From positions 77,810,001 through 77,874,000 of the forward strand of contig JBNRSN020000005.1 in NCBI GenBank assembly GCA_051313645.2: a stretch of DNA of 64,000 nucleotides, read 5' to 3'. Positions 801 through 59,157 of the stretch are shown piece after piece (the first letter of the stretch is position 1; each line of letters begins with the position of its first letter). The notes beneath the pieces are model-generated. The model was not told where the DNA came from. It searched no databases and was given only the letters and a program-made list of their open reading frames with translations. A program made the position numbers and the translations under genes. Source of the DNA: Centroscyllium fabricii (lineage: Eukaryota).

Positions 801-1388
801 TGGTTGGAATCATACCTAGCGCAAAGGAAGTTGGTTGTGGTTGTTGGAGGTCATTCATCTCAACCACAGGACATCACTGCAAGAGTTCCTCAGGACAGTG
901 TCCTAGGCCCAACCATCTTCAGCTGTTTCATCAATGACCTTCCCTCCATCATAAGGTCAGAAGTGGGGATGTTTGCTGATGATTGCACACTGTTCAGCAC
1001 CATTCGAGACTCGTCAGATACTGACGCAGTCTGTGTCCATATGCAGCAAGACCTGGATAACATTCAGACTTGGGCTGACAAGTGGCAAGTAACATTCGCA
1101 CCACACAAGTGCCAGGCAATGACCATCTCCAACAAGCGAGGCTCGAACCATCTCCCCTTGACATTCAATGGCATTATCATCGCTGAATCTCCCACTATCA
1201 ACATCCTGGGGGTTACCATTGATCGGAAACTGAACTGGACCAGCCATATAAATACTGTGGCTACAAGAGCAGGCCAGAGCTGGGAATTCTGCGGCGAGTG
1301 TCTCACCTCCTGACTCCCCAAAGCCTTTCCACCATCTACAAGGCACAAGTCAGGAGTGTGATGGAATACTCTCCACTTGCCTGGATAG
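801..1388 (+). mobile_element. Second CR1-clade LINE RT fragment (different subfamily), abutting the truncated Gypsy end
   Basis: WLESYLAQRK...VPQDSVLGPTIF...MFADDCT...W..KWQVTFAPHKC; same family as 9645-10250 and 32191-33030. Confidence 0.85.
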
Positions 1389-4300
1389 CGTCGGGGGCCC
1401 CGGTGTGTGTGCGTATGTAGGCCAGTAATCAGTGGATGTTGATCGATATGTAGGCCAGTGTTCGGTAGATGGTGGCTGGTCGGGCTGAGGCTCGACCAGA
1501 GGTTCTGCTCTAGAGCTCCCGGCGAGCGCTAGGTCTCTGATGGAAACTGTGTCCTCGCCGCCGTCCGGGAACTGCACGTAGGCATACTGCGGGTTGGCGA
1601 GCAGCAGCTGCACCTTTTCCACCAGGGGGTCGGTCTTATGGCCGCGGACATGTTTCCTAAGTAAGACCGGCCCCGGCGTCGTGAGCCACGGTGGGAGTGC
1701 TGTCCCCGAAGTCGACTTCCTGGGGAAGGAAAATAATAGGTCGTAAGGTGTAGCATTTGTAGCCGTGCACAGCAGAGAGTGAATGGAGTGGAGCGCGTCT
1801 GGGAGGACTGCCTGCCAACGGGACACTGGAAGGCCTCTGGACTTCAGGGCCAGGTTGACCGCCTTCCAGATGATCCCGTTCTCCCTTTCTACCTGGCCGT
1901 TCCCCCGGGGGTTGTAACTGGTCGTTCTGCTTGAGGCAACGCCTTTCTGAAGCAGAAACTGACGCAGTTCGTCGCTCATGAATGACGACCCCTGGTCGCT
2001 ATGGATGTAGCTGGGGAGACCGAAAATGGCAAACTGCATGGTGAAGTGTCTTATCACAGTTGCGCTCGTCATATCTGGGCAGGGGAAGGCGAAGGGGAAG
2101 CGGGAGAACTCGTCCACGACCGTGAGGAAGTACGAGTTGCGGTCGGTGGAAGGGAGGGGGCCTTTGAAGTCCACGCTCAGACGTTCAAAGGGGCGGGTGG
2201 CCTTGATGATGTACGCTGTGTCTGGCCTGTAAAATTGGAGTTTGCACTCGGTGCAGACAGTGCACTCTCGGGTCATAGCCTTGATCTCCGTGATGTAGTA
2301 GGGGAGGCTACGGGACGTAACGAAATGGGCGAGTCTGGTGACACCCGGGTGGCACAGGCTATCGTGGAGGGCCTTCAGCCGGTCCAGCTGGGCGCTGGCG
2401 CACGTTCCCCGGGACAATGCGTCCGGGGGTTCGTTGAGTTTGCCTGGGCGGTAAAGAATGTCGTACTCGTAAGTCGAGAGTTCGATCCGCCACCGCAGGA
2501 TCTTATCATTCTTGATTTTACCCTTTTATTTATTGTAAAACATAAACGCGACTGACCGTTGGTCGGTGAGCAGGATAAAATGCTTACCGGCCAGGTAATG
2601 ACGCCAGTAGCGCACTGCCTCCACGATGGCCTGGGCCTCCTTTTCCACTGCTGAGTGGCAAGTTTCGGGTCCCTGTAGGGTGCGGGAGAAAAACGCTACG
2701 GGCCTGCCCACCTGATTCAAGGTGGCGGCCAGGGCGAAGTCCGAAGCGTCACTCTCCACCTGGAAATGGATGGACTCATCAACGGCGTGCATGGTCGCCT
2801 TGATGATATCTTCCTTAATCAGGGCGAATGCCATTTGGGCTTCTACCGAGAAGGGGAAGACGTCAGCCTTGAGGAGCGGTCTGGCCTTATCCGCGAACTG
2901 GGGGACCCATTGTGCGTAATAGGAGAAAAATCCCAGACAAAATCCCAGACATCTCCTCAGGGCTTTGGGGTTGTGAGGAAGGGGCAGTTCCTGTAAGGGG
3001 CGCATACACTGTGGGTCAGGGCCGAGGACCCCGTTTTCCACCACGTATCCGAGGATTGCGAGCTGATCTGTACTAAAGATGCACTTGTCTTTATTGTATG
3101 TGAGATCGAGCCGTTTCGCCGTGTGGAGAAATTTTGCAAGGTTGGCATCGTGGTCCTGCTGGTCATGGCCGCAGATGGTCACGTTGTCCAGGTAGGGAAA
3201 GGTGGCCTGCAACCCGTTCTGGTCAACCATACGGTCCATCTCCCTTTGCAATACCGACACCCCGTTGGTCACGCCGAAGGGGACCCGGAGGAAGTGGTAG
3301 AGCCGACCGTTCGCCTCGAAGGCGGTGTACTGGCGGTCTGATTTCCTGATTGGGAGTTGGTGATACGCCGACTTAAGGTCGATTGTCGAAAAGACCGAAT
3401 ACTGGGCAATCTGGTTAACCATGCGGGGAAGCGGGTAGGCATCGAGACCGGTGTAGCGGTTAATTGTCTGTCTGTAATCGATCACCATCCGTAATTTCTC
3501 GCCAGTCTTAACCACTATGACCTGGGCCCGCCAGGGGTTGGTGCTGGCCTCAATTATCCCCTCCTGCAGCATACGCCCGACTTCTGACCTGATAAATGCC
3601 CGGTCCCCTGCACTGTAACGCCGACTCTTGGTAGCAATAGGTTTGCAGTTGGGGTCGAGGTTGGCGAACAGCGAGGGGGGGTTGACTTTCAGGGTGGATA
3701 GGCCGCAAGTCGGGCTCCGCTTCAGGAAGGGATTTTCCCGGCTACTGACGGTGAGGGGGGCCAGGGTCCCGCCGAACTCCATTGTCACGCTCTTCAGGTG
3801 GCACTGGAAATCCAGTCCCAGTAAGACTGGGACGAACAACTGCTGGAGTATGTACAGTTTAAAATTGCGGTACACGCAGTCCCTGACCGTGAGCGTGACG
3901 GAGCAGTAGCCGGTGACGTCCGCCGTGTGGGACTTTGAAGCAAGGGAGATTTGGTAGCGCATGGGCAGGGTCCGCAGTGCGTAGCGCTGCACTGTGTCAG
4001 GGTGGATGAAGCTCTCTGTGCTTCCGGTGTCGAACAGACAGTTGGTAACGTGACCGTCCACTTTAATCCCCATCATGGAATTTGATAGGGTGTGCGGCCT
4101 AGCCTGGTCGACAATGGCTGAGGCCGAAGTGTGTGTGTGTGTGTAGGGGCCCTCCGCTAGCTGGGGCCATGCACAAGATGGCGGCGCCCGTGGTTCGTAT
4201 GCAGCCAACCGCGGTGGACAAGATGGCGGTGCTGGGGGGTCGTACATGGCTGGCCGCGGGATACAAGATGGCGGCGCCATGGAGTCGCACGCAGCCGACC

Positions 4301-5558
4301 GCGGTGGACAAGATGGCGGCGCCGGGGAGTCGCTCATGGCTGGCCGCTGGGAACAAGATGGCGGTGCCGGGGAGTTGCACATGGCTGGCTGCTGGGGACA
4401 AGATGGCGGCGCCCGTGATTCGCACGCGGCGGACCGCGGTGGACGAGATGGCGGCGCCCGTGGTTCGCATGCGGTGGACCGCGGTGGACGAGGTGGCAGT
4501 GCCCGTGGTTCGCACGCAGCGGACCGCGCTGGGCGAGGTGGCGGTGCCCGTGGTTCGCACGCAGCGGACCGCGCTGGGCGAGGTGGCGGCTTTGGGGGGT
4601 CGCACATGGCTGGCCACGGCTGCCATTGGCATGGCGGTGCCCGTGCCGTGCGCGCGGCCGGCCTCTGCCGTGCAGGGATGGGAGACAGAGGCACCTGTGG
4701 TTTACCCCCGGACCGCTGCTGGGTCGCGCTGCAACAGCAGTTTACCTTAGGCCATGGGATGGCGTTGGAGCTCTCGCAGGCCGCGCTGTTGGATCTGGAG
4801 CTGGGCGCTGGGGCCGATTTGGAGGCCCTGGCGTAGTGTCCTTTCTTGCCGCATCTCTCGCAGGTCGCGCTCTTCGCGGGGCATTTCGCTCGCGGGTGTT
4901 GTCCCTGGCCGCAGAAGTAGCATCTACGCTCCGACGGCGTCTTCGCAGCTGCCGCTGCCATCGTGGGGTCCTCGACCTGTCGTGGGGCCGCCCAGGGATC
5001 GAGGGTATCGTGTGGGCCTTGGCCGCCATACGCCTCTAGTTTGCGGCGCGCTCCGTCCACTGCGTTGGAGATGGAGATCGCCTCCTCCAGTGATAGAGTG
5101 TCCTTTTCCAATAACCGCTGACGGGCCTGGTTGGACCTGATTCCTGCCACGTATGCGTCCCGTACGAGGAGATTCATCTCCTCCTGCGCCGTTCGTGGCT
5201 GGCAGTCACATGCCCGAGCGAGGGCTTGAAGCGCCAACAGATATTGTTCGTTCGACTCACCAAGCCGCTGTTGTCTGGTCGCCAGGACGTGTCTGGCATA
5301 GACCGAGTGGACCGGGCGCAAGTAGCATTCCTTCAGCTTCTTCACCGCCTCTGTGTACGTCGTGAGGCCGCGGATGAAGGAGTACACACGGCTACTGATT
5401 CTGGACGAGAGGACGTGTAGTTTGTCCCCGTCGCTCATCGCCTTTGCGGCCTCCATGTAGGCCTCGACAAGGCTGAACCAATGTTCAAAAGTGTTGGCGG
5501 CGGCTGGTTCCTGTGGATTGATATCCAATTTTTCGGGTTTCACAGCGCCACTCTCCAT
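1389..5558 (-). pseudogene. G1 gag-pol polyprotein with one in-frame stop at 2526-2528
   Basis: Zinc knuckles CYFCGQGQHPRAKC and CERCGKKGH; protease LFDTGS; RT VPFGV and YLDNV; RNase H ESDAS/EKE/TDQ; integrase HHCC and D,D,E. ORFs 2526..5558 and 1350..2417 are in the same frame, and the TAA sits where G3 has Gln. A 12-bp duplication gives CLGFCLGF. Confidence 0.93.
4174..4640 (-). repeat. 45-bp coding minisatellite (~10 copies, 15-aa Pro/Cys/Ala unit) between nucleocapsid and protease
   Basis: CAAGATGGCGG-like core recurs at 4174, 4219, 4264, 4309, 4354, 4399, 4444, 4489, 4534, 4579. Confidence 0.95.
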
Positions 5559-5580
5559 TTCAAAATTAAGTTATTAAAAT

Positions 5581-5872
5581 TGACGTATCGTCAATAATAC
5601 AAAGACGAGTAGTTACCTTAACTATAGGCTTTTAATAACTTAAAGATGGAGCTAGTCTCCAGTTGAACATCAGGTACAGAATGACTGGGGGCAGGGCGGA
5701 CCTCACCTATAAGGCTCCCACCTGAGGGGAGGAGTTAGAGGTGTGGCTGACCTGACCTTACAACCGTGTTCTACATCTCATACCTTCAATGCACCAAGCA
5801 ACTATATACATGGGTCATGTGGTGCAGTACAATTACAATCCAACTATATACAATGGTAATATGATTACCACA
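5581..5872 (-). repeat. 5' LTR of G1 (292 bp)
   Basis: Minus strand TGTGGTAA...GATACGTCA; TATA-like CTTATAGG, ATTAAA signal; central and 3' parts similar to the LTRs at 35581 and 37279. Confidence 0.92.
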
Positions 5873-8166
5873 TTGAGGTTCTGCATTGCTGAAAATGACT
5901 TTTTGAGCTTTGAAACCTGCATGTATGTAGGTGAGATGGCTGGGACAACATTAATGCAGTGATTGATAAGTGCTGGTCCTCACTCGAACAACCATTAATG
6001 TGGCCGTGGTTGCTTAATGCCGTTATTAAACTGCATGTTACAGTTGCAACGTTTATTGTTTCTGGGTTCATTATTGCATGTGATGGATGGATGGATGGGA
6101 ACATGAGCATAAATGAAATGTCTGGGGCGTCAGGGGACTGGGTGCATGCACGAGCGCTGAAGGCACTCAGAGCCAATTGGCAGCCCCACAAGCCCACCCC
6201 CCACACACAAGATGTTGTTGCAGTAGTGGGGCTCATGCAGGTATGAGCTATGGAACTGATTGGAGTGTGGCAGTGTGGATGCGCTGTTAGGATAGTGAGA
6301 CGAGCAGAAGCTGCCTTGAGTAGGCTAAGCAAATCTTGCAAGGATGAACTCATTGCTTGCTTGCCGGGCAGCAATGTTCTCGCGTAATGCTGGCAGAGGC
6401 TGGTGTCGAGCTGCAGCAAATCCGTCTTCTTCGTCCTCCTCTTCCTCTTCCTCTTCCTCCTCCTCTTCCTCTTCCTCTTCCTCCTCCTCTTCCTCCTCCT
6501 CCTCCTCATCATCTGAGGATGGTATGCGAGGAGCCAGGTCTTGGTCAGGAAGTTGCAAGCCACGACGCTGGGCCATGTTGTGAAGTTGACAGCAAACCAC
6601 TACCATTCTGGAGACCCTGGCTGGGGAGTATTGGAGGGCTCCACCTGATCTGTCCAAGCATCTGAAACGCATCTTGAGCAAGATGATGGTGTGCTCTATA
6701 ATGCTTCTGGTGGAGATGTATGTGGAGTTGTAGTTCTCCTCAGCCTCATTGGCTGGCCTCCTGACTGGCGTCATGAGCCAAATCCTGAGGGGATAGCCCA
6801 TGTCTCCAAGTAGCCATCACGGAAGTTCGTCCGGCGGTATGAAGAGCGTAGGCAAGGTTGATTGGCGCAGGACGAAGGAGTCATGGCAGCTGCCAGGGTA
6901 CCTGGCACACACATGCAAAATCTCCTTGTTGTGGTCGCACACCAGTTGAACATTAAGCGAATGGAAGCCCTTGCGGTTGACAAAAGCAACTGGGTTGTCG
7001 GTGGGTGCCCTAAGGGCCACATGTGTGCAGTCAATAATGCCCTGCACCCTTGGGAAGCCTGCCAGACGAGCTATTCCAATCGCTCAGGCCCTCACACTTG
7101 CGCGATCCGTGGTGAAATGGATGAAATTGTGGGCGAGGGCAAAGAGGGCATCGGTTACCTGGGTGATGCAGGAGTGTGTGGCCGACTGAGAGATTCCACT
7201 GATGTCAGCTGCTGATCCCTGAATGAGCCAGAGGCAAAGAAGTTGAGTGCGGTGGTGACTTTGAGGGCCACTGGTAAGGCATGTCTACCTGGTGTCCTGG
7301 GCTCCAGCTGGTGCTGCAGCATGGCGCAGATGTCTGTGACTGCCTCTCGGGAACGTCAGAGGTGCCTTTGGCACCGCCACTCACTCATGTTGAGGTAGGT
7401 GGCTCGGACTCTGTAGACCTGGTTTGGGGGGTATCTTCTACGGCGCCGGCCTTCGATGCGCGGATGCCTTCTGGCCCATCCTGCCACCGGAGGGTCTGCA
7501 GGAGCGTCAGGCTCCTGGTGTGGCTGATGCTGGTGAGGTGGCTCCTGCTGTGGCTGCTGCTGTTGCTGCTGTAGCCGCAACTGCTCCTGATGGCGATCAT
7601 GTAATCCCAAGAAGGGAAGGAAGAAAATGGCTCCCATGGCTGTGCTGGCAGCCGCAGCTGAGGAAGCACTGAGTGAGGGGGGGAAGTGAGAGGGCTTTCT
7701 CAGGTCACACTGCAGAAGTGTTTGAGGATGCAACCTTCCACAGGTTTGCTGAAGCCTGTTGCAAGTATCCCCAGGATTGAGACAACAATGTGGTTGCGAA
7801 TGCGATTAATGGCTGATTAAATGTGAGCCTTCAAATAGTGACCAGCCACAGATACTCAGCAATCCGAATGAGTTCGCACTAGGGTTGCACCTGACGGGCT
7901 TTAGCTTGGTGGCTTTTTTGCGGCAAACAGCTGAAAATAGCTAAGGGCCCTTAAAATGGCATAAAGATGGCAATTAAGGGCCCTTAATGACCTTAACAAC
8001 CATCCCCGCCGGGCGCCGGCGGCAAAGATTTGGGGCGGAGAAAAAGGCCGCCCAAAAACTCAAAACCGGCGGGGAATGGGCGGGCTTGGGCGGGAACCAA
8101 AGTTTTCCTATTTTCACCTCACGGCCGCCCAAAACCCCGCCTGATGGGGACATCAAAATTCCCCCC
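5873..8166 (-). mobile_element. PIF/Harbinger DNA transposon remnant, left part cut by the G1 insertion
   Basis: HARBI1-like transposase; terminus AAAATTCCCCCC at 8155-8166. Confidence 0.85.
6325..7637 (-). pseudogene. HARBI1-like DDE transposase, frameshifted, with C-terminal poly-Glu tract
   Basis: [14 protein letters not shown]; GIIDCTHV; [15 protein letters not shown]; PGSCHDS; GYPL..WLMTP; IE..I..LK.RFRCL; spread over several frames; (GAG/GAA)n at ~6425-6510. Confidence 0.92.
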
Positions 8167-27732: not shown

Positions 27733-27972
27733 TCAGCGTGTTGTCGGCGTTCACAACTTATGCCCAACGATAGTCTAACTTATGCATAGCGCGCGGCAGC
27801 GTTTCGCCGACAATCACGTGGCGTAGCCTATTCAAAGGCTGTCATTGGACGATTAAAATCATACCACTAGACATCGAAGTGCAGCTCCACCCACCCAAAC
27901 TGATTCCAGTTCTACATCAAAATCTGCCTTGACAAGTCTGTTTTTTTGCCAAGTCTCTACAACATCACCATC

Positions 27973-29365
27973 ATGCCTAGGAAAAGTTCAAAGAATGCTG
28001 CCAGGAAGTCTCCTGGCCGTGGCCGTGGGCGCGGACGCATGGAGGATCCATCACCCACACCCTTCCCATCACGCTCACCCTCTGACGGAGAGGATGCTGG
28101 TTCCAACGCCTCTCGGGCATCGTCGGTGGCTGCGTCCGTGGCCTCCACCTCCTCTCAGCCAACCCTTGCGAAGAAGAGGGCCAAGAAGACACAGTTTTGT
28201 CTTTCTGTTGAAGAGGAGCAGCTGATGTGCGATTTCCTTTTCGAGAACGCCATCCTCTGGGACATTAAAAAGACAGACTACCGGAGGGTGGACAAGAAGG
28301 GAAAGCTCTGGGAGGATCAGGCAAAGGACATGGGGAAGACTGTGGAGCACCTTCAAGGGTGGTTCAAGTCCCTGCGAGACACCCACACCCGTCTCCACAA
28401 GAAGAAGAGCGGTGATGGCGCCCCGGAACTGACAGAGAGGGAGCAGTGGGTGAAGGCAAAGTTCGGCTTCCTCAGGACTGTGGTCCGCCATCGTGCTGAG
28501 CCCGTCCACAGTGTAAGTATAAACACATATTAATATCCATAATAATATTTATTTATATTAGTTTTACTGTACTTTGCCTCGTATTTTTGCATTGTATTTT
28601 ACTAATCAATTGTCATAATTGCAGGTAAAGGAAACCATTGCAGCACACAGCGGGGACCTCGAGGCTGGCGAGGCTGCCTGTGCAGAGATGGTGTTGGACA
28701 GCACACCCTCCCCTGTCCCCAGGGGGAAGCGTGGCCAGGACGATGACCAGCTGCAGTCACTCCAGAAGAGGGTGCACGAGTCTGGGGAGCTCCTCAAAAA
28801 TCTCGCACAGCCTCAGCCCATCACAACCACCTCAGCCTTCGCCAACTACGTGCGTGACAGCCTGGTCAGCATGTCCATGCGCAACTTCCGGAAGGCAAGG
28901 TTGCGCATCAACACCATCCTCACTGAGCTGATGGAGGAGGACACTGAGGAAGAAACCCCCATTTACGTGCGATCACCTTCAGCACCAGCTACCTACACCC
29001 CCACGGCATCGGCAATGTACCAGCAACATCCCCACAGGTGGAGACACACGGCACCGGCTGCGTCAGTCTGTGGACCGTACATGCAGCAGCCACAGTACCA
29101 GCAGATGATGCCACAGTACCAGCAGATGATGCCTCCTCCCCCTCAGCATGTGTTCCAACATCCTCCTCCTCTGATGATGCAGCAGCCAAGCCTCGCCTCT
29201 TCATCTGCTGCTATAGGCTCGGCTGGCCAGGTACTGAGCCATAGCCAAAGCACCTTCGACACTAGCGATATCTTCAATATCTCTGGATTCAACATTTCCA
29301 GCAGTCCTAATGCTGCAAGTAGCCCGCCTGGGGAGCTGAAGACACCTCCACCATCAGGGCACTGA
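27973..29365 (+). CDS. MADF (Myb/SANT-like) + BESS-like DNA-binding protein, 2 exons (27973-28512, 28625-29365), 426 aa
   Basis: MADF pattern LMCDFLFENAILWDIKKTDYRRVDKKGKLWEDQAKDMGKTVEHLQGWFKSLRDTHTR; BESS-like AFANYVRDSLVSMSMRNFRKARLRINTIL; phase-0 GTAAGT...ACTAAT...TTGCAG intron of 112 bp; AATAAA overlapping the stop. Confidence 0.9.
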
Positions 29366-33030: not shown

Positions 33031-33107
33031 ATGGATAAAATGGTGGAGGGTCTCAGAAGAGTCGTGGATGTAGGTTGGAAGAGACGGAATGGGGGAGAAA
33101 ACATAAT

Positions 33108-33869
33108 GGCCCAGAAATTAGGGCCGCAACGCGCGAGTTTGGACGGCGTACTCACGCGTGCGGCCCTCAGAAGTGCTGGTTCCTGGCATTCACCGCGCAT
33201 GCGCACAGAACCAGCACTTCCGATGCCGTGTCTGGAGGGGTCGGGAGCCCCAGCACGTTGGCCTGTGCAGCTCCTGCTGCGCAGCGAACTTCCAATTTTT
33301 AGCACAAGTTTTTTTCAGGGTAAGTATTTAAATATTTACGGCTCCTTTTTTCAAGCGCAAGGAGTGGATTTCATCAGTTAAGTCTTTATTTAATTTAATT
33401 TAGTCATTTTTTTCACAGGTTTTTCATTTTTTTTAACTTTCAAGACAGGTAAGTTGATTTTTAGGCCCGTTAAAAACTTAAAATATTTTTTCAACATTTT
33501 TCTTTTTTCTTTAAAATAGCTAATTTATGCTATTGATAGTAATTTTTAAAAATGTGATGGTTAAAAAAAATTATTTTAAGGTTTAGTGTGGTTTTGGGGC
33601 TCTAGTATTTCATAAGTTTGACAGATCCTTCTATCAAACTTATGAATGGCGCATTCTTTGCTCTGATTGGCTCCCCGCGAACCACGTGGTCCCGCGCAGA
33701 GCCTCGTATTAACTCCAACGTCCAGATGCTCCAGCACGGCGCGTGGGGCTTGCAGCAGGGCCTAGGATCGGGAGTTCAAGTGCCAGAAATCGAGAACGGC
33801 AGGTGCACTCCGTAAGTGAACTTTGGAGGCTTGCACTCGCGGCAAGCCTCTGATCGTAATTTCTGGGCC
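33108..33869. mobile_element. ~760-bp MITE, GGCCCAGAAATT-TIR family, copy 2
   Basis: TIRs GGCCCAGAAATTA / TAATTTCTGGGCC. Confidence 0.85.
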
Positions 33870-35580: not shown

Positions 35581-37578
35581 TGTGGTAACCGTTATATGTA
35601 CTCTTTTACCACCATAATATTGTTGCCCAATATTAATCTGTATGTATAGCGGCCGGGTGCATGATACACTGCTTTGTATTGCGACACTGTCGCGGGGTCA
35701 GGTCAGCCACATCTCTAACTCCTCCCCTCAGGTGAGTGCCTTATAGGTGGGGTCTGACCTGCCCCCATCCATTCTGTACCTGATGTTCGATCGGAGCGTA
35801 GCTCCTTTGTAAGCTAATAAAAGCCTTTAGTTGAGGTAACTACGTGTCTTTGGTTTTATTAGACTATTGACGATACGTCCTGCGGTGGCGGATCGAGCTC
35901 TCGACTTACGCATACGACATTCTTTACCGACCAGGCAAACTCAATGAACCCCCGGACGCATTGTCCAGGGGAACGTGCGCCAGTGCCCAGCTAGACCGGC
36001 TGAAGGAACTCCATGATCGCCTCTGCCACCCGGGTATCACCAGACTCGCCCACTTCGTTAAATCCCGTAGCCTCCCCTACTCCATCACGGAGATCAAGGC
36101 TATGACCCAAGAGTGCCCTGTTTGCGCCGAGTGCAAACCCCAATTTTACAGGCCAGACACGGCGCACCTCATCAAGGCCACCCCCCCATTTGAACGTCTA
36201 AGCGTGGACTTCAAAGGCCCCCTCCGCTCCACCGACCGCAACTCGTACTTCCTCATGGTCGTAGACGAGTTCTCCCGCTTCCCTTTCGCCTTCCCCTGCC
36301 CAGATATGACGAACGCAACGGTGATCAAACACTTCACCACGCTGTTCGCCATTTTCGGTCTCCCCAGCTACATCCATAGCAACTGGGGATCGTCGTTCAT
36401 GAGCGACGAACTGCGTCAGTTTCTGCTTCAGAAAGGGATTGCCTCAAGCAGAACGACCAGTTACAACCCCCGGGGGAACGGCCAGGTAGAAAGGGAGAAC
36501 TGGATCATCTGGAAGGCGGTCAGCCTGGCCCTGAAGTCCAGAGGCCTTCCAGTGTCCCGTTGGCAGGCAGTCCTCCCAGATGCACTGCACTCGATCCGCT
36601 CTCTGTTGTGTACGGCTACCAACGCCACAGCTCACGATTTGCTCTTTTCCTTCCCCAGGAAGTCGACTTCGGGGACAGCCCTTCCACCATGGCTCACGAT
36701 GCCGGGGCCGGTCTTGCTTAGGAAGCATGTTCGTGGCCATAAGACTGACCCCCTGGTAGACAAGGTGCAGCTGCTGCATGCCAACCCGCAGTACGCGTAC
36801 GTTCAGTTCCCGGACGGGCGCGAGGACACCGTCTCCATCAGGGACCTAGCGCCCGCCGGGAGCACCACAGCAGAGCCCCTGGTCGAGCCTCAGCCCGTCC
36901 ACCCACTACATTTCGACCACTGGCTGATACACCATCCACAACCCACCGGAGGCTGGCCATTTCAAACATACACATCGGAGCCCCCGTCACTGCCAGCTGA
37001 GGACCAGGAACCGGACGACGAGCCGCAGGCACAGCAGCAACCGGAGGGCCCGGCCCCACCGCCACTACCAGCACCTACGGTACCGGCACCAGCGCCGCCG
37101 CCACTACCGGCACCAGCGCCGCCGACACTACCGACACCAGCGCCGCCGACACTGCAGACACCAGAGCCGCTGACAGAGACCCGGTGGTCCTCCAGACAGA
37201 CGCGACCGCCGGAGAAACTCATCATGAACTGTTCTGTCCATTCACCCCGCCGGACTTAATTTTCAAAGAAGGGGTGAATGTGGTAACCGTTATATGTACT
37301 TTTTTACCACCATAATATTGTTGCCCAATATTAATCTGTATGTATAGCGGCCGGGTGCATGATACACTGCTTTGTATTGCGACACTGTCGCGGGGTCAGG
37401 TCAGCCACACCTCTAACTCCTCCCCTCAGGTGAATGCCTTATAGGTGGGGTCTGACTTGCCCCCATCCATTCTGTACCTGATGTTCGATCGGAGCGTAGC
37501 TCCTTTGTAAGCTAATAAAAGCCTTTAGTTGAGGTAACTACGCGTCTTTGGTTTTATTAGACTATTGACGATACGTCA
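35581..37578 (+). mobile_element. Internally deleted Gypsy element G2: LTR-integrase-PPT-LTR (1998 bp)
   Basis: LTRs 35581-35879 and 37279-37578 (~5 substitutions in 300 bp); TSD CCTGT; PPT AAAGAAGGGG at ~37265; the 5' LTR joins directly to LRWRIELS at the end of RNase H. Confidence 0.96.
35961..37259 (+). CDS. G2 integrase open frame (HHCC zinc finger, catalytic core, Pro-rich tail); no native start codon
   Basis: H..LCHPG...C..C; VDFKG; HSNWG (second catalytic Asp changed to Asn; G1 has HSDQG); GQVERE. Confidence 0.8.
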   Translation: MSRGTCASAQLDRLKELHDRLCHPGITRLAHFVKSRSLPYSITEIKAMTQECPVCAECKPQFYRPDTAHLIKATPPFERLSVDFKGPLRSTDRNSYFLMVVDEFSRFPFAFPCPDMTNATVIKHFTTLFAIFGLPSYIHSNWGSSFMSDELRQFLLQKGIASSRTTSYNPRGNGQVERENWIIWKAVSLALKSRGLPVSRWQAVLPDALHSIRSLLCTATNATAHDLLFSFPRKSTSGTALPPWLTMPGPVLLRKHVRGHKTDPLVDKVQLLHANPQYAYVQFPDGREDTVSIRDLAPAGSTTAEPLVEPQPVHPLHFDHWLIHHPQPTGGWPFQTYTSEPPSLPAEDQEPDDEPQAQQQPEGPAPPPLPAPTVPAPAPPPLPAPAPPTLPTPAPPTLQTPEPLTETRWSSRQTRPPEKLIMNCSVHSPRRT

Positions 37579-38822: not shown

Positions 38823-41800
38823 TGAGATGCCTCAAATCAAAGACGGCAGCGAGTTCTTAAATAAGTGGCTTTTATTCACAAGGAACTGAACCGTGTCCCC
38901 GATGAGCCTGCCTGGAATGAGAGATAAGTGGGCGGAGCATTCTCCTTTATACTAGTACCCAGAGGCGGGGTCAGCCGGAACAGGTCCTTACAGAAATGTA
39001 GAGATATTAACAGATATATAACAAACACATTAAACAAAACTATATACAATAACCGTACAGTGTGATCCACACCAAAAGGTTCATCACATTCACACCTTCC
39101 TTAAAAAGAAGTCCAGCGGGGCGAATATCAGCACTGTGTTATTAGTCTTTGTGGAGGTTTAACAGTCCGATCAGATCGGCGAGGCAGTGTCGGTTCTGGT
39201 GAAGAAGCGGGAGTAGTCGTAATCGGAAAAGACGCTGACGGGGCTCCCGACGTGAACAGAGACTCCACCGGTGGAAGAGGTACCTCAGGCACAGGAAGAT
39301 CTGGTGGAGGTGTAGCAGCCGCCAAAAGAGTAGGCTGAGCAACATGATGAGCTCCGTCGTGCATCGGAAGTGATGAGGGCCCCGATGTAATGTGCGCAGG
39401 TGAATGAAAAGACGGCCCCTGCTGTGAAAATGTGACCTGGGAGGGCAAGGGCTCCGCCAACGACTCAAGAGTGAACGTCTCCAGCGGGCGCAAGGTCTCT
39501 AATCGAGACGGTATCCTCACGCCCGTCTGGGTACGCCACGTAGGCATACTGAGGGTTGGCATGCAGCAAGCGCACACGTTCGACAAGAGGGTCCGTCTTG
39601 TGTCCACGGACATGCCTTCTAAGCAAAACCAGCCCCGGGTTGGTAAGCCACGTCGGCAGAGACGTCCCCAAAGTTGATTTCCTAGGGAAAGAGAAGAGTT
39701 TCTCGTGAGGTGCGCAACCGGTGGCTGTGCACAAGAAGGAGCGGGTAGCGTGGAGCGCATCCTGGAGGACCTCCTGCCAATGAGAGGTTGGAAGGCCTTT
39801 GGATCGAAGGGCCAGGGTGATGGCCTTCCAGATGGTCCCATTATAACGTTCTACCTGACCGTTCCCCCGGGGGTTGTAACTGGTCGTTCTGCTCGAGGCA
39901 GCCCCCCTCACGAGCAGAAAATGACGCAGTTCGTCACTCATAAATGAGGACCCCGGTCGCTGTGTATGAAGCCGGGAAGGCCGAAAATGGCGAATAGCAT
40001 GATAAAATGCTTTATCACTGTTGCACTCGTCATATCTGGGCATGGGAATGCAAAAGGGAAACGGGAGAACTCGTCGACCACAGTGAGAATGTACGAGTTA
40101 CGGTTGGTAGAGGGGAGGGGACCTTTGAAGTCCACACTCAGGCACTCGAATGGGCGGGTGGCCTTGATGAGGTGCGCCCTGTCAGGCCTGTAAAACTGGG
40201 GCTTGCACTCAGCACAGACAGGGCACTCCTGCGTCATCGCCTTGATCTCCGCAATGGAATAAGGGAGATTGCGTGATTTGACGAAGTGAGCGAGCCTGGT
40301 GACCCCCGGGTGGCAGAGATTAGCGTGGAGGGTGTTCAGACTACCCGACTGGGCGCTGGCACACGTTCCTCAGGACAGGGCGTCCGGGGGATCGTAAAGC
40401 TTCCCTGGCCAGTACAGAATGTCGTACTCAAAAGCGGAGAGTTCGATCCGCCACCTGAGGATCTTGTCATTCTTGATTTTACCCCTCTGTTTATGGTGGA
40501 ACATAAACGCTACTGACCGCTGGTCAGTAAGAAGGGTAAATCGTTTACCGCCCAAATAGTGGCGCCAGTGGCGCACTGCTTCCACGATTGCTTGGGCCTC
40601 CTTTTCCACTGAAGAGTGGCGGACTTCAGGGCCCTGCAGGGTACGGGAGAAGAAAGCGACGGGCCTGCCTGCCTGGTTAAGGGTGGCGGCCAGGGCGAAG
40701 TCTGAGGCGCCGCTTTCGACGTGGAAGGGGAGAGACTCATCAATGGCGTGCATGGTTGCCTTGATGATGTCTTGCTTGATATGCGAAAAAGCAATTTGGG
40801 CCTCTAACGGGAGCGGGAAGGAGGTAGCCCTGAGTAGAGGCCGGGCCTTATCAGCATAATGGGGAACCCATTGTGCATAGTAAGAGAAAAAACCCAGGCA
40901 TCTCCTCAAAGCTTTGGGGGAGTGCGGTAGGGGCAGCTCCTGAAGGGGGTGCATACGTTCGGGGTCGGGGCCGAGGACCCCGTTCTCAACCACGTAGCCG
41001 AGGATAGCCGAGGATAGTGTTGAAAACGCACTTATCCTCATTGTAAGTGAGGTTCAGACGCTGGGCCGTACGGAGAAACCTGTCCAAATTGGCATCATGA
41101 TCTTGCTGGTCATGGCCGCAGATCGTGACATTGTCCAAATACGGGAATGTGGCCTGCAAATCATACTGGTCAACCATTCGGTCCATCTCTCGTTGGAAGA
41201 CCGAAACTCTGTTGGTAACTCCAAAGGGGACCCGGAGGAAGTGAAAAAGGCGCCCATTTGCCTCGAAGGCAGTGTATTTACGGTCCTCAGCTCTGATGGG
41301 GAGCTGGTGATAGACTGACTTAAGGTCGATGGTGGAGAAGACCTTATACTGGGCAATCTGATTGACCATGTCATTGATTCTAGGAAGCGGATAAGCGTCG
41401 AGCCCAGTGTAGCGGTTAATAGTCTGGTTATAGTCGATGACCATGCGCTGTTTGTCGCCAGACTTAACCACCACCACCTGGACCCGCCACGGGCTGTTAC
41501 TGGCCTCGATGATGCCCTCCCGCAACAACCGAGCAACCTCTGCCTTCATAAAGGTGCGGTCCCCCGCGCTGTATCGCCGACTCTTGGTTGCAATGGGCTT
41601 GCAGTCAGGGTCAAGGTTGACGAACAGCGAGGGGGGTCTATCTTCAAGGTAGACAGACCGCAAGGGGAGTGTGGTTGTAAGGCAGGGCAGTCGCGGCTGC
41701 TGACCGTGAGAGGAGGCAGGGGACCGCCGTATGCCATCGTCATGCTCTGCAGATTGCACTGGAAGTCCAGGCCAAGCAACACAGGGGCGCAGAGCTGTGG

Positions 41801-43860
41801 GAGGACGTACAGTTGAAAGTTGCGGTATGTCGTCCCCTTCACGGTAATAGTGACTGTACAGCAGCCGATGACGTCCACAGTCTGGGACTCGGAGGCGAGG
41901 GAGATTTTACGATGTGTGGGCTTAACCCTGAGGGAATAACGGCGCACCGTATCAGGGTGTATGAAGCTCTCCGTACTCCCAGTGTCGAACAGTCATCGGG
42001 TGAGGTGCCCCTTTACCCGGATGGGCATCATCGATGATATGAGAGACTGGTTGAGGGCTGTAGAGGCAAGTGTGGTGTGCGCGCTAGGGCCCTTGTGCAA
42101 TGCAGGGTTCGCGAGCGATGGCGGCTCCCGTGATTCGCACGCGGCGGGCCACGGTGGTGTTTCGGGCCGTTGGGAGGACCGCTAGGTGGGTCGCTGAGAA
42201 AGCCGTTGGGAGGACCGAAGGGCTCGTGGCGCGCAAGCACCAGAATGCTGAATTGCCCTGGAGTTGCCTGTTGCTGCTGCCAGGATCATTGGAATTTCTC
42301 CAGGGCTGCCTGTTGCTGCTGCTGCCTGCATCGGTAAGCTTGCCTTAAACAAAGATGGCCGCGCCCTGGGCTGGGGCGGGGCTGCTGCTGCCAGGAGGCG
42401 AATTGCCCGCATCCAAGATGGCGGTGTCATGTGACGGGGCGGGGCCGCTGCTGCCAGGATGCGAGTTGACCGCATCAAAGATGGCGGCGCCCTGTGCTGG
42501 GATGCTGCCGCTGCTGCCAGGATACCCGACGGCGCCCGCGTTTCACGCCGATTCAGCGAGGAAGAAGGTGCCCGCGCCCCCAAAGATGGCGGAGTGCGGG
42601 AAACGAGCGAGGAAGAAGATGCCCGCGCCCCCAAAGATGGCGGAGTGCGGGAAACAACGTTGGCAGGCCGCATCTGAGGCAAGGTAGGTGGCAATCATTC
42701 AGAGGGCCGCTGTTGGGGGGCGCTAGGTACCTGAGGCAACTCTGTGGCGTGGACATCGCAGGCTGCTGCCATTTTCCGTGCTGATTCCGGGGCTGATCGG
42801 CAGACCTTCGCAAAATGGCCCTTCTTGCCAATTTGGAGCAGGAAAATGCCTTCGCTGGGCTGGAGCTTCGTGGATGGTGTTTCTGGCCGCAAAAAAAACA
42901 TTTCGGAGGCGCTGGCTGTCCAGATGGTGCCGTGGCCGCCACGGTCGCCGTCGAGGGCGTCGAACACGAGTCCCAAGGCCCAGGGGAAACCGTGTGGGAG
43001 CCGTGCCCCGTGTACGAATCTAGGCTCCGGAGGGCCCCATCCACCGCGTTGGAAAGCTTCAGCGCCTCATTTAGGGATAAATTACCCTGCTCGAGCAGAC
43101 GGGTGTGGGCTGGGGCCGATCTGATGCCTGCCACGTAGGCATCGCAGACAAGGAGGTCCATGTGCTCCTGGGCGTTAACAGGGGCGCATCCGCAGCATTG
43201 AAGAGCCTCCAGGTACTCCTCTTTCGACTCACCATGCTGTTGCCGCCACGTGCCGAGTAGATGGCGAGCATAGACTGCGTTGACTGGCTGGAGATATCGA
43301 GCCTTCAGTAGCTCCATCGCTGCATCGTATTCCGTGGCGCTCTTAATTATGGAATACACTCTGCCACTCACGCAGGAGACCAGGACTCTTCTCTTGTGCG
43401 CGTCGCCGACTCCGGCCACGACAAGGTACGACTCGAAGCAGCTCAGCCAATGTTCAAAAACTTTCAACGCGTTCAGTGCCTGGGGGTTGAGGTCGAGAGT
43501 TTTTGGTTTTAGAACTGTCTTCCAACTCTCAGATGTTGCTGGCTGTTGATCTTCATTCTGCTGGCTCATTTTAAAAATCCTTGTGAATAAAATTGAGATG
43601 CCTCAAATCAAAGACGGCAGCGAGTTCTTAAATAAGTGGCTTTTATTCACAAGGAACTGAACCGTGTCCCCGATGAGCCTGCCTGGAATGAGAGATAAGT
43701 GGGTGGAGCATTCTCCTTTATACTAGTACCCAGAGGCGGGGTCAGCCGGTACAGGTCCTTACAGAAAAGGTACAGATATTAACAGATATATAACAAACAC
43801 ATTAAACAAAACTATATACAATAACCGTACAGTGTGAACCACACCAAAAGGTTCATCACA
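38823..43860 (-). mobile_element. Full-length but frameshifted Gypsy element G3
   Basis: LTRs 38823-39088 and 43594-43860; TSD AATAC; PPT at 39089-39105; gag ATG 43569; PR FDTGS, RT YLDNV, RNase H and INT in shifted frames. Confidence 0.96.
39128..43569 (-). pseudogene. G3 gag-pol, multiple frameshifts
   Basis: ORF pieces 42553..43569, 42182..42694, 41546..41947, 40986..41759, 40370..41041, 39938..40237, 39465..40043 and 39128..39841 tile the G1 polyprotein. Confidence 0.93.
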
Positions 43861-45867: not shown

Positions 45868-46617
45868 GGCCCAAAAATTCGGGTTGGAGGCTTCCCGCGA
45901 GTGCCAGCCTTCAACCCACATTTATCTAGCGCGCCGGCCGTTGAGCAGCCGGACTTCCGCTGCGGGGCCTTCCTGAACTGCCGGCGCGCCGCGCTCCCAG
46001 ATCCCAGCGGCGAAGATAGTGCGAGGCTTCACGTGGGATCACGTGGCCCGCGGAGAGCCAATCGGAGCACAGAATGCTCCATTCATAAGTTTGACAGGAA
46101 GACCTGCCAAACTTATGAATACTACAACCCCAAAAGCTCAGTAAATCTTAAAATAAATTTTTAAAAATCACATTTTTTAAAATAACTATCAATTACATAA
46201 ATTAGCTATTTTAAACAAAAATGAAAATTTTTGAGAAATTATTAAAGTATTTAACGGGGCTAAAAATAAACTTACCTTTCTTTAAAGTATTTAAAAATGA
46301 TAAACCTGTGGAAATCTTTTTTTTAATTGAATTAATTCACCACTTACCTGCTGAAAAGGAGTCTTTGCACTTGAAAATAGGAGACGTAACCTTTTCTAAT
46401 ACTTACCCGGATTAAAGCCTGTAAAAAAATCGCAAGTGCATTGCATATGCACTGCTGCGCACACGCACGCGTTCCGATCCTTGACCCCTTCTTTCAGGGG
46501 ATTGGAAGTGCCGGTTTCGCGTGCATGCGCGCTGCATGTAGGAAACCGGCAATTCTGATGGGCCTACGCGTGAGTACCCAGCGCGTACTCACGCGTTGGG
46601 ACCCTAATTTCTGGGCC
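45868..46617. mobile_element. 750-bp MITE copy 3, inserted into a Penelope terminus (45800-45867 + 46618-46651)
   Basis: TIRs GGCCCAAAAATT / AATTTCTGGGCC; 3-bp TSD AAC. Confidence 0.88.
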
Positions 46618-47380
46618 AACGTTTCAGGTCATTGACCTTTTATCAGAACTAGATTATAAGAGATTTGGATTAAGCTAATAAGGATGACAAATGTCTGATT
46701 TGTTCTGTGGTAATGTGTAATAATGGTCAAAGATAGCAATTGGCTTTGAAAGCCTACTGTAACATAAATGGCCATTAAAAAAAATTGGAGTAATTAAAGT
46801 ACTTTTCCTACCAATTACCTCAAAGAAAAAGGCATATTTTGAAGGTTTTATATTTTGAGAATATTACATTTAAAAATAATTTCTAAGCCACATGAGCTTT
46901 GTAACAATGACATTATAGCTCCTTTTGGATCTGTACCTTGATTAGTAATTCTAACCCTGGCAAGTAGTAAAAACAGGAGAAAAAGTCAGTAACTTAGACA
47001 GTAAATGCATTATAATAGCAAAGCAGCCTTTTCCAGCAACAAATGCTTAGGTAAGAACTTCTGTCCAAACAAAATATGAAATCATAATAACACTACTTAT
47101 AATCATAAAAACAGATGTCTGAATTAAAAGTGAGAGCTCCTAGCTAGATACTTTATACTTTTATTGTCCAAAATGAATTCCAGGTCATGAATTTTTTTTT
47201 CATCTCCAAAAATTTGCCAGGATGTGAAAGAAATCTTTTCTTTTCAGCTGAAATAAACAATTTACTTTATTGCTTCAATGTGAGCTTGTTTTTTGTTTTT
47301 TCAATGTAGCCAGCTGAGGGCTGGGAATTCATAAGGATAAGAAACATGCAGGAAAGCAATTTTCACACAGACTGAATTAT

Positions 47381-48420: not shown

Positions 48421-49422
48421 TGTGTCTCACAATGAGGTTATATTGTTTGTACCACGAGTAAACAGTTGATAACTAGGCACTGCAGTCAAGGCATCGGACA
48501 ACATCTTGAATAATGCTCTGCCGTGCAAAAGTTTTATAAATGTCAGTGCCTGTTTTGTGCCGTGTGTACTGTATTTCACTGTTGCATATGGGGCCGTGGT
48601 TGAAAACACCAGTGAAGAACCACACAAACATAGTAGGAATTTAGAGTTTTTAATTTTTCTGGCAACAAAGCTCTGGCCTATTTTAGGCCCAGGACAGGAT
48701 CACCTCCCCTTTCCAGACCCGACAGCCGGACGACTTTTCATCATGGGTCTTATTTCAGAATTCCATAAAGAACAAAGAAGGCTGTTTTCTCCCAGCACTG
48801 AGATATGAACAGTTTTAGTTTGAAGTTAACCTGTGTAATGGGGCAAATTATCCAGTCAGAGCAGGAGAGGAAAAGGAATGACATCAGCTTAATCTTTTCC
48901 ACATTTTCATTAATAACATGAAAACTGAGTCCTGTCATTAAAAAATGTGGAAGGTGTATTTAACTAATAATTTATTAATTGTATTAATTAGAGTCAATTT
49001 ACAAATTCAAATTGTGTTCGATTAAAATTAGACCTTTCTCTCCAGCTCTAAAATTTGTAACACAGCGGCTAATTTTTTCAAGTGATAGTGAAAGTTGTCG
49101 TTACAGATAGCAGACAGGATTTTCCATTGCCCATTAATTGGGGCACTTCCCCTGCCTGCCATGGAGATGTGCCCTTGCATTTTGATCAAATTTCCAGCCT
49201 TGAGATCATTTGTATTTTGAAGGCAGGCTCCCAGCCTGTGTGCTGCCTGCAACAATGACAATTTTTACAAAGAAAAAAAGACTTGCATTTACATAGCGCC
49301 TTTCATGACCACCGGATGTCTCAAAGCACTTTACAGCCAATGAAGTACTTTTTTTTCTGATTCCGCATTGGCCTGTGCCAGGCAACGGGCCTGAAGTTCG
49401 GTACCTGAGTGTCGGTTGTTAA

Positions 49423-49984
49423 AGGCCCTGTCACACCTAGACGTTTTAGCCAGCATATGCAAATTTGGCTAAAACGCTGGGTTACGCTGAACTTTGGGCG
49501 TTTAATAGCGTATTCATAACGAGTTGGACGTATGCATAACGTATTATACGGTAGCAAACACGTTCAGTAAGTTCTGTGGTCGTAAATATGCGTTGGAGAT
49601 ACGTTACACATAGGTTCAAAGCACGTTACTCATAGGTTAGAAATAAGTTCCGGGTACGCTTAGAAATTATCTCGACGTCTTTTGACTTATGAATAACTTA
49701 CAAGTAACGTGTGTCGACGTGTGTCAACGATCGCCTAACGTGCCTACAACGTATGGCCAGCGTATGCGGAACGTGTGAATCATACGCAAAATACGTGGAG
49801 AAATTTTGTGCATGCTCAAAATTTCTCGACTTACTCGAAGTACAACGACGTATGCAACTTATGGCCAGCGTATGCCAGCGTGCTCTTAACGTATGCATAA
49901 CGTACCCATAACGTATCCGACGTAACCCAGCGTTTTAGCCAAATTTGCATATGCTGGCTAAAACGTCTAGGTGTGACAGGGCCT
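49423..49984 (+). mobile_element. 562-bp MITE, near-identical inverted copy of 27169-27732, inside an older GGGCC-ended element (~49387-50616)
   Basis: Same TIRs; by eye one substitution and one 2-bp indel versus 27169-27732; flanks TAA/TCA. Confidence 0.95.
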
Positions 49985-50699
49985 TCAAGCCAGATTCATG
50001 GAAGAAATGGCGTCCACCTCGCTTCCCGCGCTGGACGCCATATTGGTGAGGGCAAGTAAAAGAGGTGTTGCTTACCTTTGTCTGAAACACGCATTGGGCT
50101 TTTAACATATTCAAATAAGGGGCCTAATGCCTGCTTCTACTACCTCTTACAAATTTGGCTTGCATCTGAGGCAGCCAGCACCAATGCTGACTGCCTCTGG
50201 GAAAACAAACGCTAAACAGCAGTGAATTAAAAAAAGTTAAGTATTTACAATTATCATCTCCAACCTTACCCCCGACTTCGGCCTCCAGGCCCTCTCCGAT
50301 CTTCCCCTAATTTTGAATCCACCTTCCAGACCTTCCCCCAATGCTGGCCCCGACCTCCCCAGGATCTTGGCCCTGACCCAACCTCCCACCCGATCCTAGC
50401 CCCGACCTACCTCCAAATCCTTGCCCCGACCCTCCTCCCGATGCTGACCCTCACCTCCAGGCCCACCCCCGAGTCCTTGCTCGATGTTCAGCACTGGGCT
50501 GAATGCCACAATAATGCTGATCAGCAGGCAGCACCAAAATAACGCTGCTGTCTGTGATCTTTTTACGGGCACGATCAAATCCTGCCCCCCCAGTGGCACC
50601 GCTTGTTTTTGGGCCTTATGGAATTTCTAAGCCAGCATTTCTTACGCTCTTGAGCAGGCCTGGCTACCAAAAGAAAAACTTCTTCAGCTCCTCCCCCAA

Positions 50700-53351: not shown

Positions 53352-53619
53352 GAAGTGAAGAGATGCATATAGGCACAGCATATATAGTCCGAGCACTGCC
53401 AGATGATTACAGGTAATCTTTCTAACTGCCCTTTATCACACCTCAGCAAAGAGATAATCACAGCAATCAGAGGTGTGAATGGTGTCCAAACAGGTCAGTC
53501 AGGAAAACATTACATCAAAGAACAATGAGGTGGGGGTCACAAGGTGACCCCCACCTCATTGTTCTTTGATGTAATGTTTTCCTGACTGACCTGTTTGGAC
53601 ACCATTCACACCTCTGATT

Positions 53620-56165: not shown

Positions 56166-57469
56166 AATTCTTCCTCATCTCTGTCCTCAATGGCCTACCC
56201 CTTATCCTTAGACTGTGCCCCCTGGTTCTGGACTCTCCGACCATCGGGAACATTCTTCCTGCATCTAGTTTGTCCAGACCTGTCGGAATTTTATAAGTTT
56301 CGATGAGATCTCCTCTCATTCTTCTAAATTCTAAATTACAGTGAGTATAAGCCTAATCGACCCAACCTCTCCTCATACGTTATTCCTGCCATCCCAATTC
56401 AATTCAATTCAATTCAAGTTTTATTGTCATTGCAGAGTACTAGTACAATACAACGAGACGAAGACTCGACGCTCCCGAGAGTAGTGCAAATAAATTACAT
56501 GCAAATTGCATACAGTAAAGTACATTATCAGGCGTGCAGGTACCGGAGTTTATTTTTAGAATTCAGCAGGCTGACAGCCCTGGGGAAGAAGCTGTTCTTA
56601 AATCTAGTCGTGCGGGTGCAAATTGATCTGTAGCGTCTCCTGGAGGGCAGGGGGGTGAACAGACTGTGGCTGGGGTGTGTGGGGTCTTTAATAATATTCG
56701 GAGACCTCCATAAGCAGCGTTTGAGGTAGATGCTTTCCATTGACGGTAGCTGGGGACCGGTGATTCGTTGGGCAGTTTTGACTACCCGCTGCAGGGTTTT
56801 CCAGTCTGAGATAGTGCAATTTCCATACCAGACTGTGATGCAGCTTGTCAGTATGCTTTCTATTGTGCAGCGGTAGAAGTTGGAGAGGATGCCGGATGAC
56901 AGCCTGGCTTTCTTCAGCTTCCTTAGGAAGTACAGGCGCTGTTGGGCCTTCTTAACCAGAGAGGAGGTGTTTAGTGACCAGGAGAGATCTTCCGAGATGT
57001 GGACCCCGAGGAACATGAAGCTGGACACCCTTTCCACCTCAGCCCCTTGGATGAAGATGGGGGTGTGTCTTCTGCTTCCAGTCCTCCGGAGGTCCACTAT
57101 GATCTCCTTAGTTTTCTTGGTGTTCAGTGCCAGGTTGTTGTCGGCACACCATCCCACAAGGCGCTGGATCTCATCCCTGTAGGCTGACTCGTCGTTATTG
57201 GTGATCTGGCCAACCACCGTGGTGTCATCCGCAAACTTGATGATCGTGTTGGAGCCATGGACAGCCGCACAGTCGTGAGTGAAGAGGGAGTAGAGGAGTG
57301 GGCTCAGCACACAACCTTGTGGGGCCCCCATGTTCAGGGTAAGTGGGGTGGGAGGTGAGGTTGCCTAACTTCACAGACTGTGGTCTGTTGGTTAGGAAGT
57401 CCAGGGTCCAGTTGCAGAGGGAGGTGTTCAGGCCGAGGGTGAGGAGTTTGTTAGACAATTTGCTCGGGA

Positions 57470-58670: not shown

Positions 58671-59157
58671 GTTGAACAACCACCAAAAACTCCCATACCT
58701 ATTGGGGGAACAGAGGGACTGTATAAAACTGGCGGCAAAATACGTCACAGCTTGCCATAAGCAGAGGGACAACCAGTGACCATTGAAGCTAGGAAGAGCA
58801 TACAAGCTCTATATGCGGGTATATATGTATGTGTGTGCGTAGCTATTCATTCAATACGTCTGGTTATGCATTTGTATGTCCAATTGTATATGTTCTTTTT
58901 AGATCTATCTGCGGGTTTTTATGTGTATGTGTATGCATAGTTATTCATTCAATACGTCTGGTTATGCATTTGTATGTCCAACTGTATTAGATCTATATGC
59001 GGGTTTTTATGTGTATGTGTATGCATAGTTATTCATTCAATACGTCTAGTTATGCATTTGTATGTCCAACTGTATATGTTCTTTTTTGTGCTTTGGCAAC
59101 ATAGGATGTATCTTGTCATGCCAATAAAGCAATTTGAATTGAATTGAATTGAATTGA
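58671..59157 (+). mobile_element. 3' end of another non-LTR element (RTE-X-like) with a triplicated 3' UTR segment and (TTGAA)n tail
   Basis: C-terminus KLPYLLGEQRDCIKLAAKYVTACHKQR*; three ~90-100 bp repeats at 58810-59075; CAATAAAGC then (TTGAA)n. Clade name from recall only. Confidence 0.6.

Follow-up and report, generated by a model that had tools for sequence, protein, structure and literature searches.

Three related long terminal repeat (LTR) elements, named G1, G2 and G3, lie in the window, i.e. the whole stretch of 64,000 nucleotides of Centroscyllium fabricii DNA that was analysed (contig JBNRSN020000005.1). Their coordinates are listed in Table 1. G1 carries gag, protease (PR), reverse transcriptase (RT) and RNase H in one frame, and gag contains two zinc knuckles and a Pro-rich repeat. 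The latter is a 45-nt tandem repeat located between the zinc knuckles and the protease (4083-4659), coding for a Pro-rich repeat of 15 residues; it seems to be the source of the ~200 additional amino acids in host frames compared to invertebrate ones. G1 is truncated near position 1387 and has no 3' LTR inside the window, hence no target site duplication (TSD). In G2, the 5' LTR is fused directly to the end of RNase H; the leader, gag, PR and RT are gone, while the TSD is kept. G3 represents a second family, its RT region sharing 77.5% DNA identity with that of G1. The initial annotation had cited TSDs and similar LTR pairs as signs of past transposition; these were observed for G2 and G3, but not for G1.

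Table 1. Features of the three elements in the window.
Feature	Position	Strand	Remarks
G1, whole element	1387-5872	-	5' LTR, frame with premature stop, integrase core
G1 5' LTR	5581..5872	-	TG...CA; TATA-like and Inr-like sites ~131 and 104 nt before LTR end
G1 LTR segment, leader partner	5630..5643	-	Ends in ATTAAA poly(A) signal
G1 leader	5566..5579	-	PBS position, 1 nt past LTR; 14-nt perfect complement of 5630-5643
G1 gag-PR-RT-RNase H frame	2526..5558	-	ATG to premature stop
G1 RT motif A Asp (IDLKS)	3378..3380	-	Intact
G1 RT motif YLDN	3183..3194	-	Asn at third carboxylate; TAC CTG GAC AAC, FPYLDNVTICG
G1 RNase H TDQ	2559..2567	-	Clade-wide state
G1 premature stop codon	2526-2528	-	
G1 RNase H end and integrase core	1387..2525	-	Pfam
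G1 RNase H PPDALS	2412..2429	-	
G2	35581..37578	+	Internal deletion (without gag, PR, RT); LTRs 98.3% identical, TSD CCTGT
G3	38823..43860	-	Second family; full-length but broken in several places; LTRs 97.8% identical, TSD AATAC
G3 5' LTR segment	43641..43655	-	Ends in AATAAA signal
G3 leader	43578..43592	-	Sequence unlike G1 leader; 15-nt perfect complement of 43641-43655
G3 RT motif YLDN	41130..41141	-	TAT TTG GAC AAT, FPYLDNVTICG
G3 RNase H TDQ	40520..40528	-	
G3 RNase H PPDALS	40373..40390	-	

Elsewhere in the window, a fragment of a DDE_Tnp_4 (Harbinger/PIF-type) transposase with a long acidic tail is located at 6325-6816. A MADF/Myb-SANT frame (27904-28533) is flanked by inverted repeats within the segment 27165-30180, and an inverted copy of the left end of this segment (455 nt, 100% identity) is found 22 kb off, at 49422-49985; the two look like a young DNA transposon and its derivative. 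Also present are a perfect 76-nt inverted repeat with a loop of 3 nt (53465-53619), three inverted segments of 109-167 nt shared at 72-80% identity between 33107-33775 and 45953-46618 (12-13 kb apart), and a G-rich tandem array with a unit of 35 nt (57442-58706).

The third Asp of the YxDD motif of RT is considered indispensable in vivo, and its loss is taken by annotation tools as the mark of a dead enzyme. In both G1 and G3 this residue is Asn. As the initial annotation had stated, the two elements encode the same peptide around the motif, on the minus strand, with three synonymous differences between them and Asn retained. The YLDN of G1 aligned column for column with the YLDD of Ty3 RT (phmmer, E 1.5e-38), and the Asp of motif A was kept in 266 of the 272 core-clade rows of our alignment (see below). 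The fold predicted by AlphaFold was that of a normal RT-RNase H (pLDDT 89.3). The RNase H variants TDQ and PPDALS were likewise found in both elements, as annotated; here the catalytic acids are intact and only neighbouring residues differ.

We searched the host assembly (7.2 Gb) with the exact pattern FPYLD-x-(V/I)TICG, in which the flanking residues are fixed and which would therefore overlook a YxDD helper flanked by other residues. Asn occupied the variable position in 209,678 matches, Asp in 283 and Ser, which served as a control and is also one transition away from Asn, in 438; reversed-pattern controls gave 0 matches. Note that Asp revertants gain a CpG, which may depress their number, and the lower count of Asp than of Ser is thus no evidence of selection against Asp. 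YLDN was present at all 30 G1-family loci fetched. The 30 G3-family loci fetched had YLDN in 25 cases and YMDN, YLDD and YLDS in one case each, with 2 unread. Decay or a sequencing artefact as the source of YLDN is ruled out by these copy numbers, and the initial view of a fixed family trait is borne out.

Host copies typically measure ~4.85 kb and encode 1,400 amino acids. Twenty copies were selected for their long frames; 19 of them had YLDN and 1 was unread, and the longest single frame comprised 1,439 codons. In 13 of these 20, LTR pairs were 93.7-98.3% alike, none of the 13 reaching 100%, and a 5-bp TSD was seen in 8 of the 13 (read by eye). An exact pattern for the G1-type junction of LTR end and leader matched 120,499 times in the whole genome. 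In a sample of 20 evenly chosen 10-kb stretches, these elements accounted for 47,218 of 200,000 bases, distributed over 13 of the 20 stretches (23.6%; rough range 13-34% given the small sample), and all 8 RT motifs in this sample were YLDN. The clade may thus make up more of the host genome than any other single repeat component. The families that multiplied have Asn. A tandem segmental duplication is suggested by four G3-family copies (L044-L047, G000:C224) that share one stop and follow each other at a spacing of ~41-42 kb.

The closest named homologs of the host elements were shark and ray proteins (68-80% identity). Three homolog searches, all seeded with N-type queries and thus biased in their N:D ratio, returned N in 89, D in 28 and another residue in 3 proteins at motif position 4 (n = 120); DN in 96 and DD in 24 (n = 120), or 61 and 18 among the 79 proteins of at least 1,100 amino acids; and DN in 92 and DD in 22 (n = 114, six repeats excluded). 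In the relatives found in rays, corals, molluscs, flatworms, nematodes and crabs, YxDN was the majority state. Named N-type hosts included Scyliorhinus, Hypanus, Narcine, Mobula, Oculina, Actinostola, Plakobranchus, Biomphalaria, Scylla, Trichinella, Clonorchis, Paragonimus, Trichobilharzia and Spirometra, and D-type hosts included Trichonephila, Cyamophila, Hyposmocoma, Periplaneta and Trichuris. When proteins of at least 40% identity with the first Asp intact were considered (n = 288), position 4 was N in 205, D in 79 and another residue in 4, and Glu occurred in none of them. With N or D in 284 of 288 proteins, the site is still constrained, to an isosteric pair. The remaining five catalytic acids were near invariant across the clade. 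RT domains below 40% identity, with a profile search added, had YxDD in 81 of 81 cases.

YxDN elements with LTR pairs 99-100% alike were found on metagenome contigs (L163, L165, L167, L169); the apparent 100% LTRs of two further loci (L161, L162) were 127-nt contig-end overlaps and were excluded from this count. A search of viral contigs gave 123 pattern matches, with 0 confirmed. Three whole or near-whole proteins of the clade are deposited under bacterial MAG names (P0150, P0174 and P0438, as Rhizobiales bacterium, bacterium and Lactococcus garvieae, respectively) and probably represent animal DNA in bacterial bins.

To place these proteins, a FastTree phylogeny of 378 rows was computed from an alignment that lacked the motif column as well as any protein having another motif. 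Every N row fell inside a clade of 301 tips, with 77 D rows outside. The core clade of 272 tips contained 212 N and 60 D rows (~3.5:1), and the basal grade had D in 28 of 29. A single YVDN protein (P0319) sits within this D-type grade, possibly an independent origin of Asn. A branch of 17 tips containing G1 with shark and ray proteins was all N, and several multi-member D branches were nested within the N clade. The core tree needed 26 changes between N and D, compared to a mean of 54.7 and a minimum of 47 with shuffled labels. Judging from this tree, YxDN and YxDD would have switched at least 26 times inside the clade, although the number is approximate and the direction not fixed, support for the core node being 83 but 49 after adding 12 rows.

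The initial annotation had proposed that Asn is co-adapted with the altered RNase H motifs. TDQ, however, was carried by 57 N-type and 25 D-type homologs, and N-type proteins were split 12/12, D-type proteins 4/9, between xPD and xAD. Of the rows filled at this motif in the tree alignment, 236 of 239 core rows and 26 of 27 rows of the D-type basal grade had TDQ, while the outgroup had His at the third position in 58 of 80 rows. TDQ is thus a mark of the clade and predates Asn. Among the top 25 of 59 candidate residue-columns, none tracked N versus D (best median p 0.25), in a covariation test with 15 supported independent pairs and low power.

We next considered the leader, which in G1 (14 nt) and G3 (15 nt) is a perfect complement of a segment of the element's own LTR ending in A(A/T)TAAA. 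At 46 host junctions with 27 leader variants, cognate pairs were perfect over 14 nt in 23 cases (mean 12.9/14). In contrast, non-cognate pairs were perfect in 16 of 1,988 cases (mean 10.2). We then scanned 99 loci, 62 of which had enough upstream DNA. A leader was detected at 10 of 27 YxDN, 9 of 30 YxDD and 2 of 5 other loci (shuffled control 0/62, reverse strand 2/62). Note that 6 of the 9 YxDD detections belong to one host family, leaving ~six independent N-type and ~three D-type families. All 21 detected leaders start 1 nt past the LTR. They begin with ATTT or GTTT, not with the TGG needed by a tRNA 3' end. The predicted start of transcription, based on the TATA- and Inr-like sites, lies ~35-40 nt upstream of the paired segment. 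Occurrence at both YxDN and YxDD loci makes the leader a clade-wide feature that is not linked to Asn. Thus, the tRNA-independent leader of the initial annotation is real and covaries with its partner, but its coupling to Asn did not hold, as YxDD members, including a YLDD family of the same genome, have it too. The YLDN observation is wider than the initial annotation knew, and it is uncoupled from priming and from the RNase H motifs.

The leader duplex might serve only to mask the poly(A) signal of the 5' LTR against premature cleavage, a host RNA acting as primer. Such a role would suit a paired segment that has the A(A/T)TAAA signal at its end in every case and lies inside the predicted transcript rather than at its 5' terminus as in Tf1 and Tj1. 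We nevertheless regard masking without priming as unlikely. The leader occupies the primer binding site (PBS) position, and this together with the fixed offset, the missing TGG and the tight covariation favours self-priming; near-perfect covariation over 27 variants would fit copying of the leader from its primer. Minus-strand synthesis is therefore most likely primed on the element's own RNA, at an internal site, with masking of the 5' poly(A) signal as a compatible second role, since the two may coexist. A co-adaptation of Asn with TDQ/PPD and with tRNA-independent priming is less probable still. It is true that the three traits are shared marks of one wider clade, that YxDN was found nowhere outside this clade among the tree rows and the homologs below 40% identity, and that RNase H suppressors bring back 5-10% of transposition in the Ty1 RT mutant D211N, according to the accessible text of PMC2148107. 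However, TDQ and the leader are also present in D-type members, the basal grade combines D with TDQ, N and D switched at least 26 times without a change in TDQ or leader, and nematode BEL/Pao elements with YVDN belong to another superfamily. Strict coupling of the three traits is largely refuted, while a one-way permissive link survives.

Could the YLDN copies be non-autonomous passengers, mobilized in trans by the RT of a YxDD helper? The same genome does contain small, true YLDD families of the clade (L143, L150, L154, L159), with RTs 49-60% identical and the same kind of leader; the copies fetched fall inside the clade. A looser YxDD pattern gave 498 genome matches (control 5), and 27 of the first 100 matches listed were one separate YLDD family. 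Moreover, Ty1 D211N keeps its polymerase activity but does not transpose, as the initial annotation had rightly stated, with the caveats that kpol is reduced 223-fold, that Mn2+ is preferred and that RNase H mutations rescue in part (PMC2148107, accessible text). Against a helper, the YLDD families number in the low hundreds versus 209,678 YLDN matches and have different LTR ends, and within the YLDN pattern Asp does not exceed the mutation noise given by the Ser control. Furthermore, YxDN proteins retain whole frames of 1,100-1,450 amino acids and the other catalytic acids over many phyla, unlike long-term passengers. Within the reach of these patterns, from which a helper with other flanking residues would escape, we consider a helper very improbable. 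Alternatively, Asn may be positively favoured beyond mere tolerance, for example through slower or higher-fidelity synthesis or altered handling of metal or pyrophosphate. The ~3.5:1 excess of N in the core clade and the all-N branch of G1 with shark and ray proteins would agree with this, as would the fact that Asp, one transition away, has not expanded in the host genome. However, the N:D ratio is biased by the N-type search seeds, multi-member D branches persist within the N clade, and mutation bias alone could favour N, GAC-GAC becoming GAC-AAC by a CpG transition. Positive selection for Asn is thus conceivable but doubtful.

The reading we prefer, to which we assign a probability of about 0.8, is that an old Ty3/gypsy clade spread across animals (referred to below as the shark clade) includes G1-G3 and has an RT with two obligatory Asp residues that accepts either Asp or Asn at the third position. 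Members of the clade have gag and pol in a single frame and a 5-bp TSD, and 78 of 79 long proteins carry two CCHC knuckles. Its pattern of N or D, not E, matches the chemistry of Ty1 RT, in which D211N is an active polymerase and D211E is dead (PMC2148107, accessible text). As in Ty1 D211N, the side-chain oxygen of Asn may still serve the metal/primer site, and with a clade-wide change in the background the Asn enzyme would suffice for the whole of replication. Candidates for such a permissive change are TDQ in RNase H, which is older than Asn and not its partner, and clade-fixed residues around the RT motifs. As to priming, the geometry and covariation suggest that the leader, 1 nt past the LTR, pairs with an R segment that terminates in the poly(A) signal. 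Cleavage immediately behind this segment would yield a 3'-OH, as RNase H does in Tf1.

A more far-reaching version, which we advance tentatively and hold to be rather unlikely, ascribes to the clade a replication chemistry of its own. The primer would be cut behind the element's own poly(A) signal, with one duplex both masking and priming. TDQ would have retuned RNase H, comparable to the laboratory RNase H suppressors of Ty1 D211N, and freed the third Asp to drift, and a two-Asp RT would have built about a quarter of a 7.2-Gb genome. If true, the clade is an under-described, animal-wide one. Independent of this, the supposedly essential third Asp would be dispensable in a successful element, and the natural N/D pairs in many phyla offer ready-made, unaltered enzymes for the study of two-metal catalysis. 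We found no report of YxDN or of a leader paired with the poly(A) signal in animal Ty3/gypsy elements in the literature covered (mostly without subscription papers and Repbase reports).

In comparison with known systems, G1 and three whole homologs have the domain order gag-PR-RT-RNase H-IN (Pfam), as in Ty3/gypsy, and the TG...CA LTRs, the polypurine tract and the 5-bp TSD fall within the range for Ty3/gypsy (4-6-bp TSD). Among solved structures, the RT is closest to Ty3 by sequence, while a fold search ranked the RTs of MLV, CaMV and Ty3 together. The elements depart from Ty3/gypsy in the YxDD motif with two aspartates (209,678 YLDN versus 283 YLDD). Double CCHC knuckles and a 5-bp TSD are Mag-like features. 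Cigr-1 of Ciona reportedly has one frame of 3,630 bp and LTRs of 245 bp. The Cigr-1 clade is characterized by a single frame of ~1,200 amino acids and an element of ~4.2 kb. These sizes fit the invertebrate members of the shark clade (~1,200 amino acids, ~4.1 kb), the comparison being by size only; host copies are longer than Cigr-1-sized members, apparently through the Pro-rich gag repeat. The Cigr-1 clade also includes Gypsy-1_BG of Biomphalaria. A Biomphalaria family of 361 copies has been placed in Cigr-1 (PMC6238403, accessible text), and the shark clade has multi-copy Biomphalaria members with YVDN. From these sizes and the Biomphalaria link, Cigr-1 would be the likeliest existing name, as a lead. 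PMC3670739 mentions Cigr2 alone, and PMC3601003 contributed nothing about the shark clade. Saci-2/lennie is a Ty3/gypsy group with a single gag-pol frame that is present in Spirometra (PMC12471100), with a 4-bp TSD, a tRNA PBS and a CCCH gag motif (PMC12471100, PMC4558846, PMC2582038; accessible text of each). Membership in this group was rejected on the basis of the 5-bp TSD, the self-complementary leader and the two CCHC knuckles, and 0 of 10 Spirometra accessions of the shark clade are present in Table S1 of PMC12471100. The clade name Selgy was also discarded as wrong, Selgy being a plant clade.

In Tf1, Tj1 and sushi, the PBS is complementary to the element's own 5' LTR RNA and no tRNA is used, as described in the accessible text of PMC4600332 and PMC6317226. 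The shark clade shares this complementarity to its own LTR RNA. The pairing partner appears to differ, being the 5' end of the mRNA in Tf1 and Tj1 (PMC4600332) but, in the shark clade, a segment of 13-15 nt that ends in the poly(A) signal and lies ~35-40 nt past the predicted start of transcription. The leader thus points to a self-priming geometry unlike that of Tf1. A chromodomain, a trait of Tf1/sushi, was without a match in G1, G2 and the three whole homologs (Pfam).

Active-site mutants of Ty3 RT are said, in a citing sentence, to have been described by Bibillo in 2005. Ty1 D211N and engineered Ty3 RT mutants are changed at the same position as the shark clade (second Asp of YxDD to Asn), and, as far as the accessible sources go, polymerase activity survives and Glu is not tolerated. 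Ty1 D211N, however, is engineered and transposition-dead, whereas the Asn of the shark clade is natural and present in ~200,000 copies. A natural YxDN RT is not new as an idea. YVDN occurs in the nematode BEL/Pao elements Cer7-Cer12, among them an intact one whose LTRs are identical (PMC554778), and the same motif is found in Atlas virus of the Belpaoviridae (PMC9094657), both according to the accessible text. BEL/Pao is a different superfamily, arguing for an independent origin of Asn, while the shark clade is Ty3/gypsy, occurs in many phyla and has repeatedly exchanged D and N. Whether an RT retains activity with Asn at this position was left to be determined in PMC554778. The shark clade, with ~200,000 copies lacking a matching YxDD helper in the patterns searched and with natural N/D sister pairs in many phyla, provides a population-scale answer to this question.
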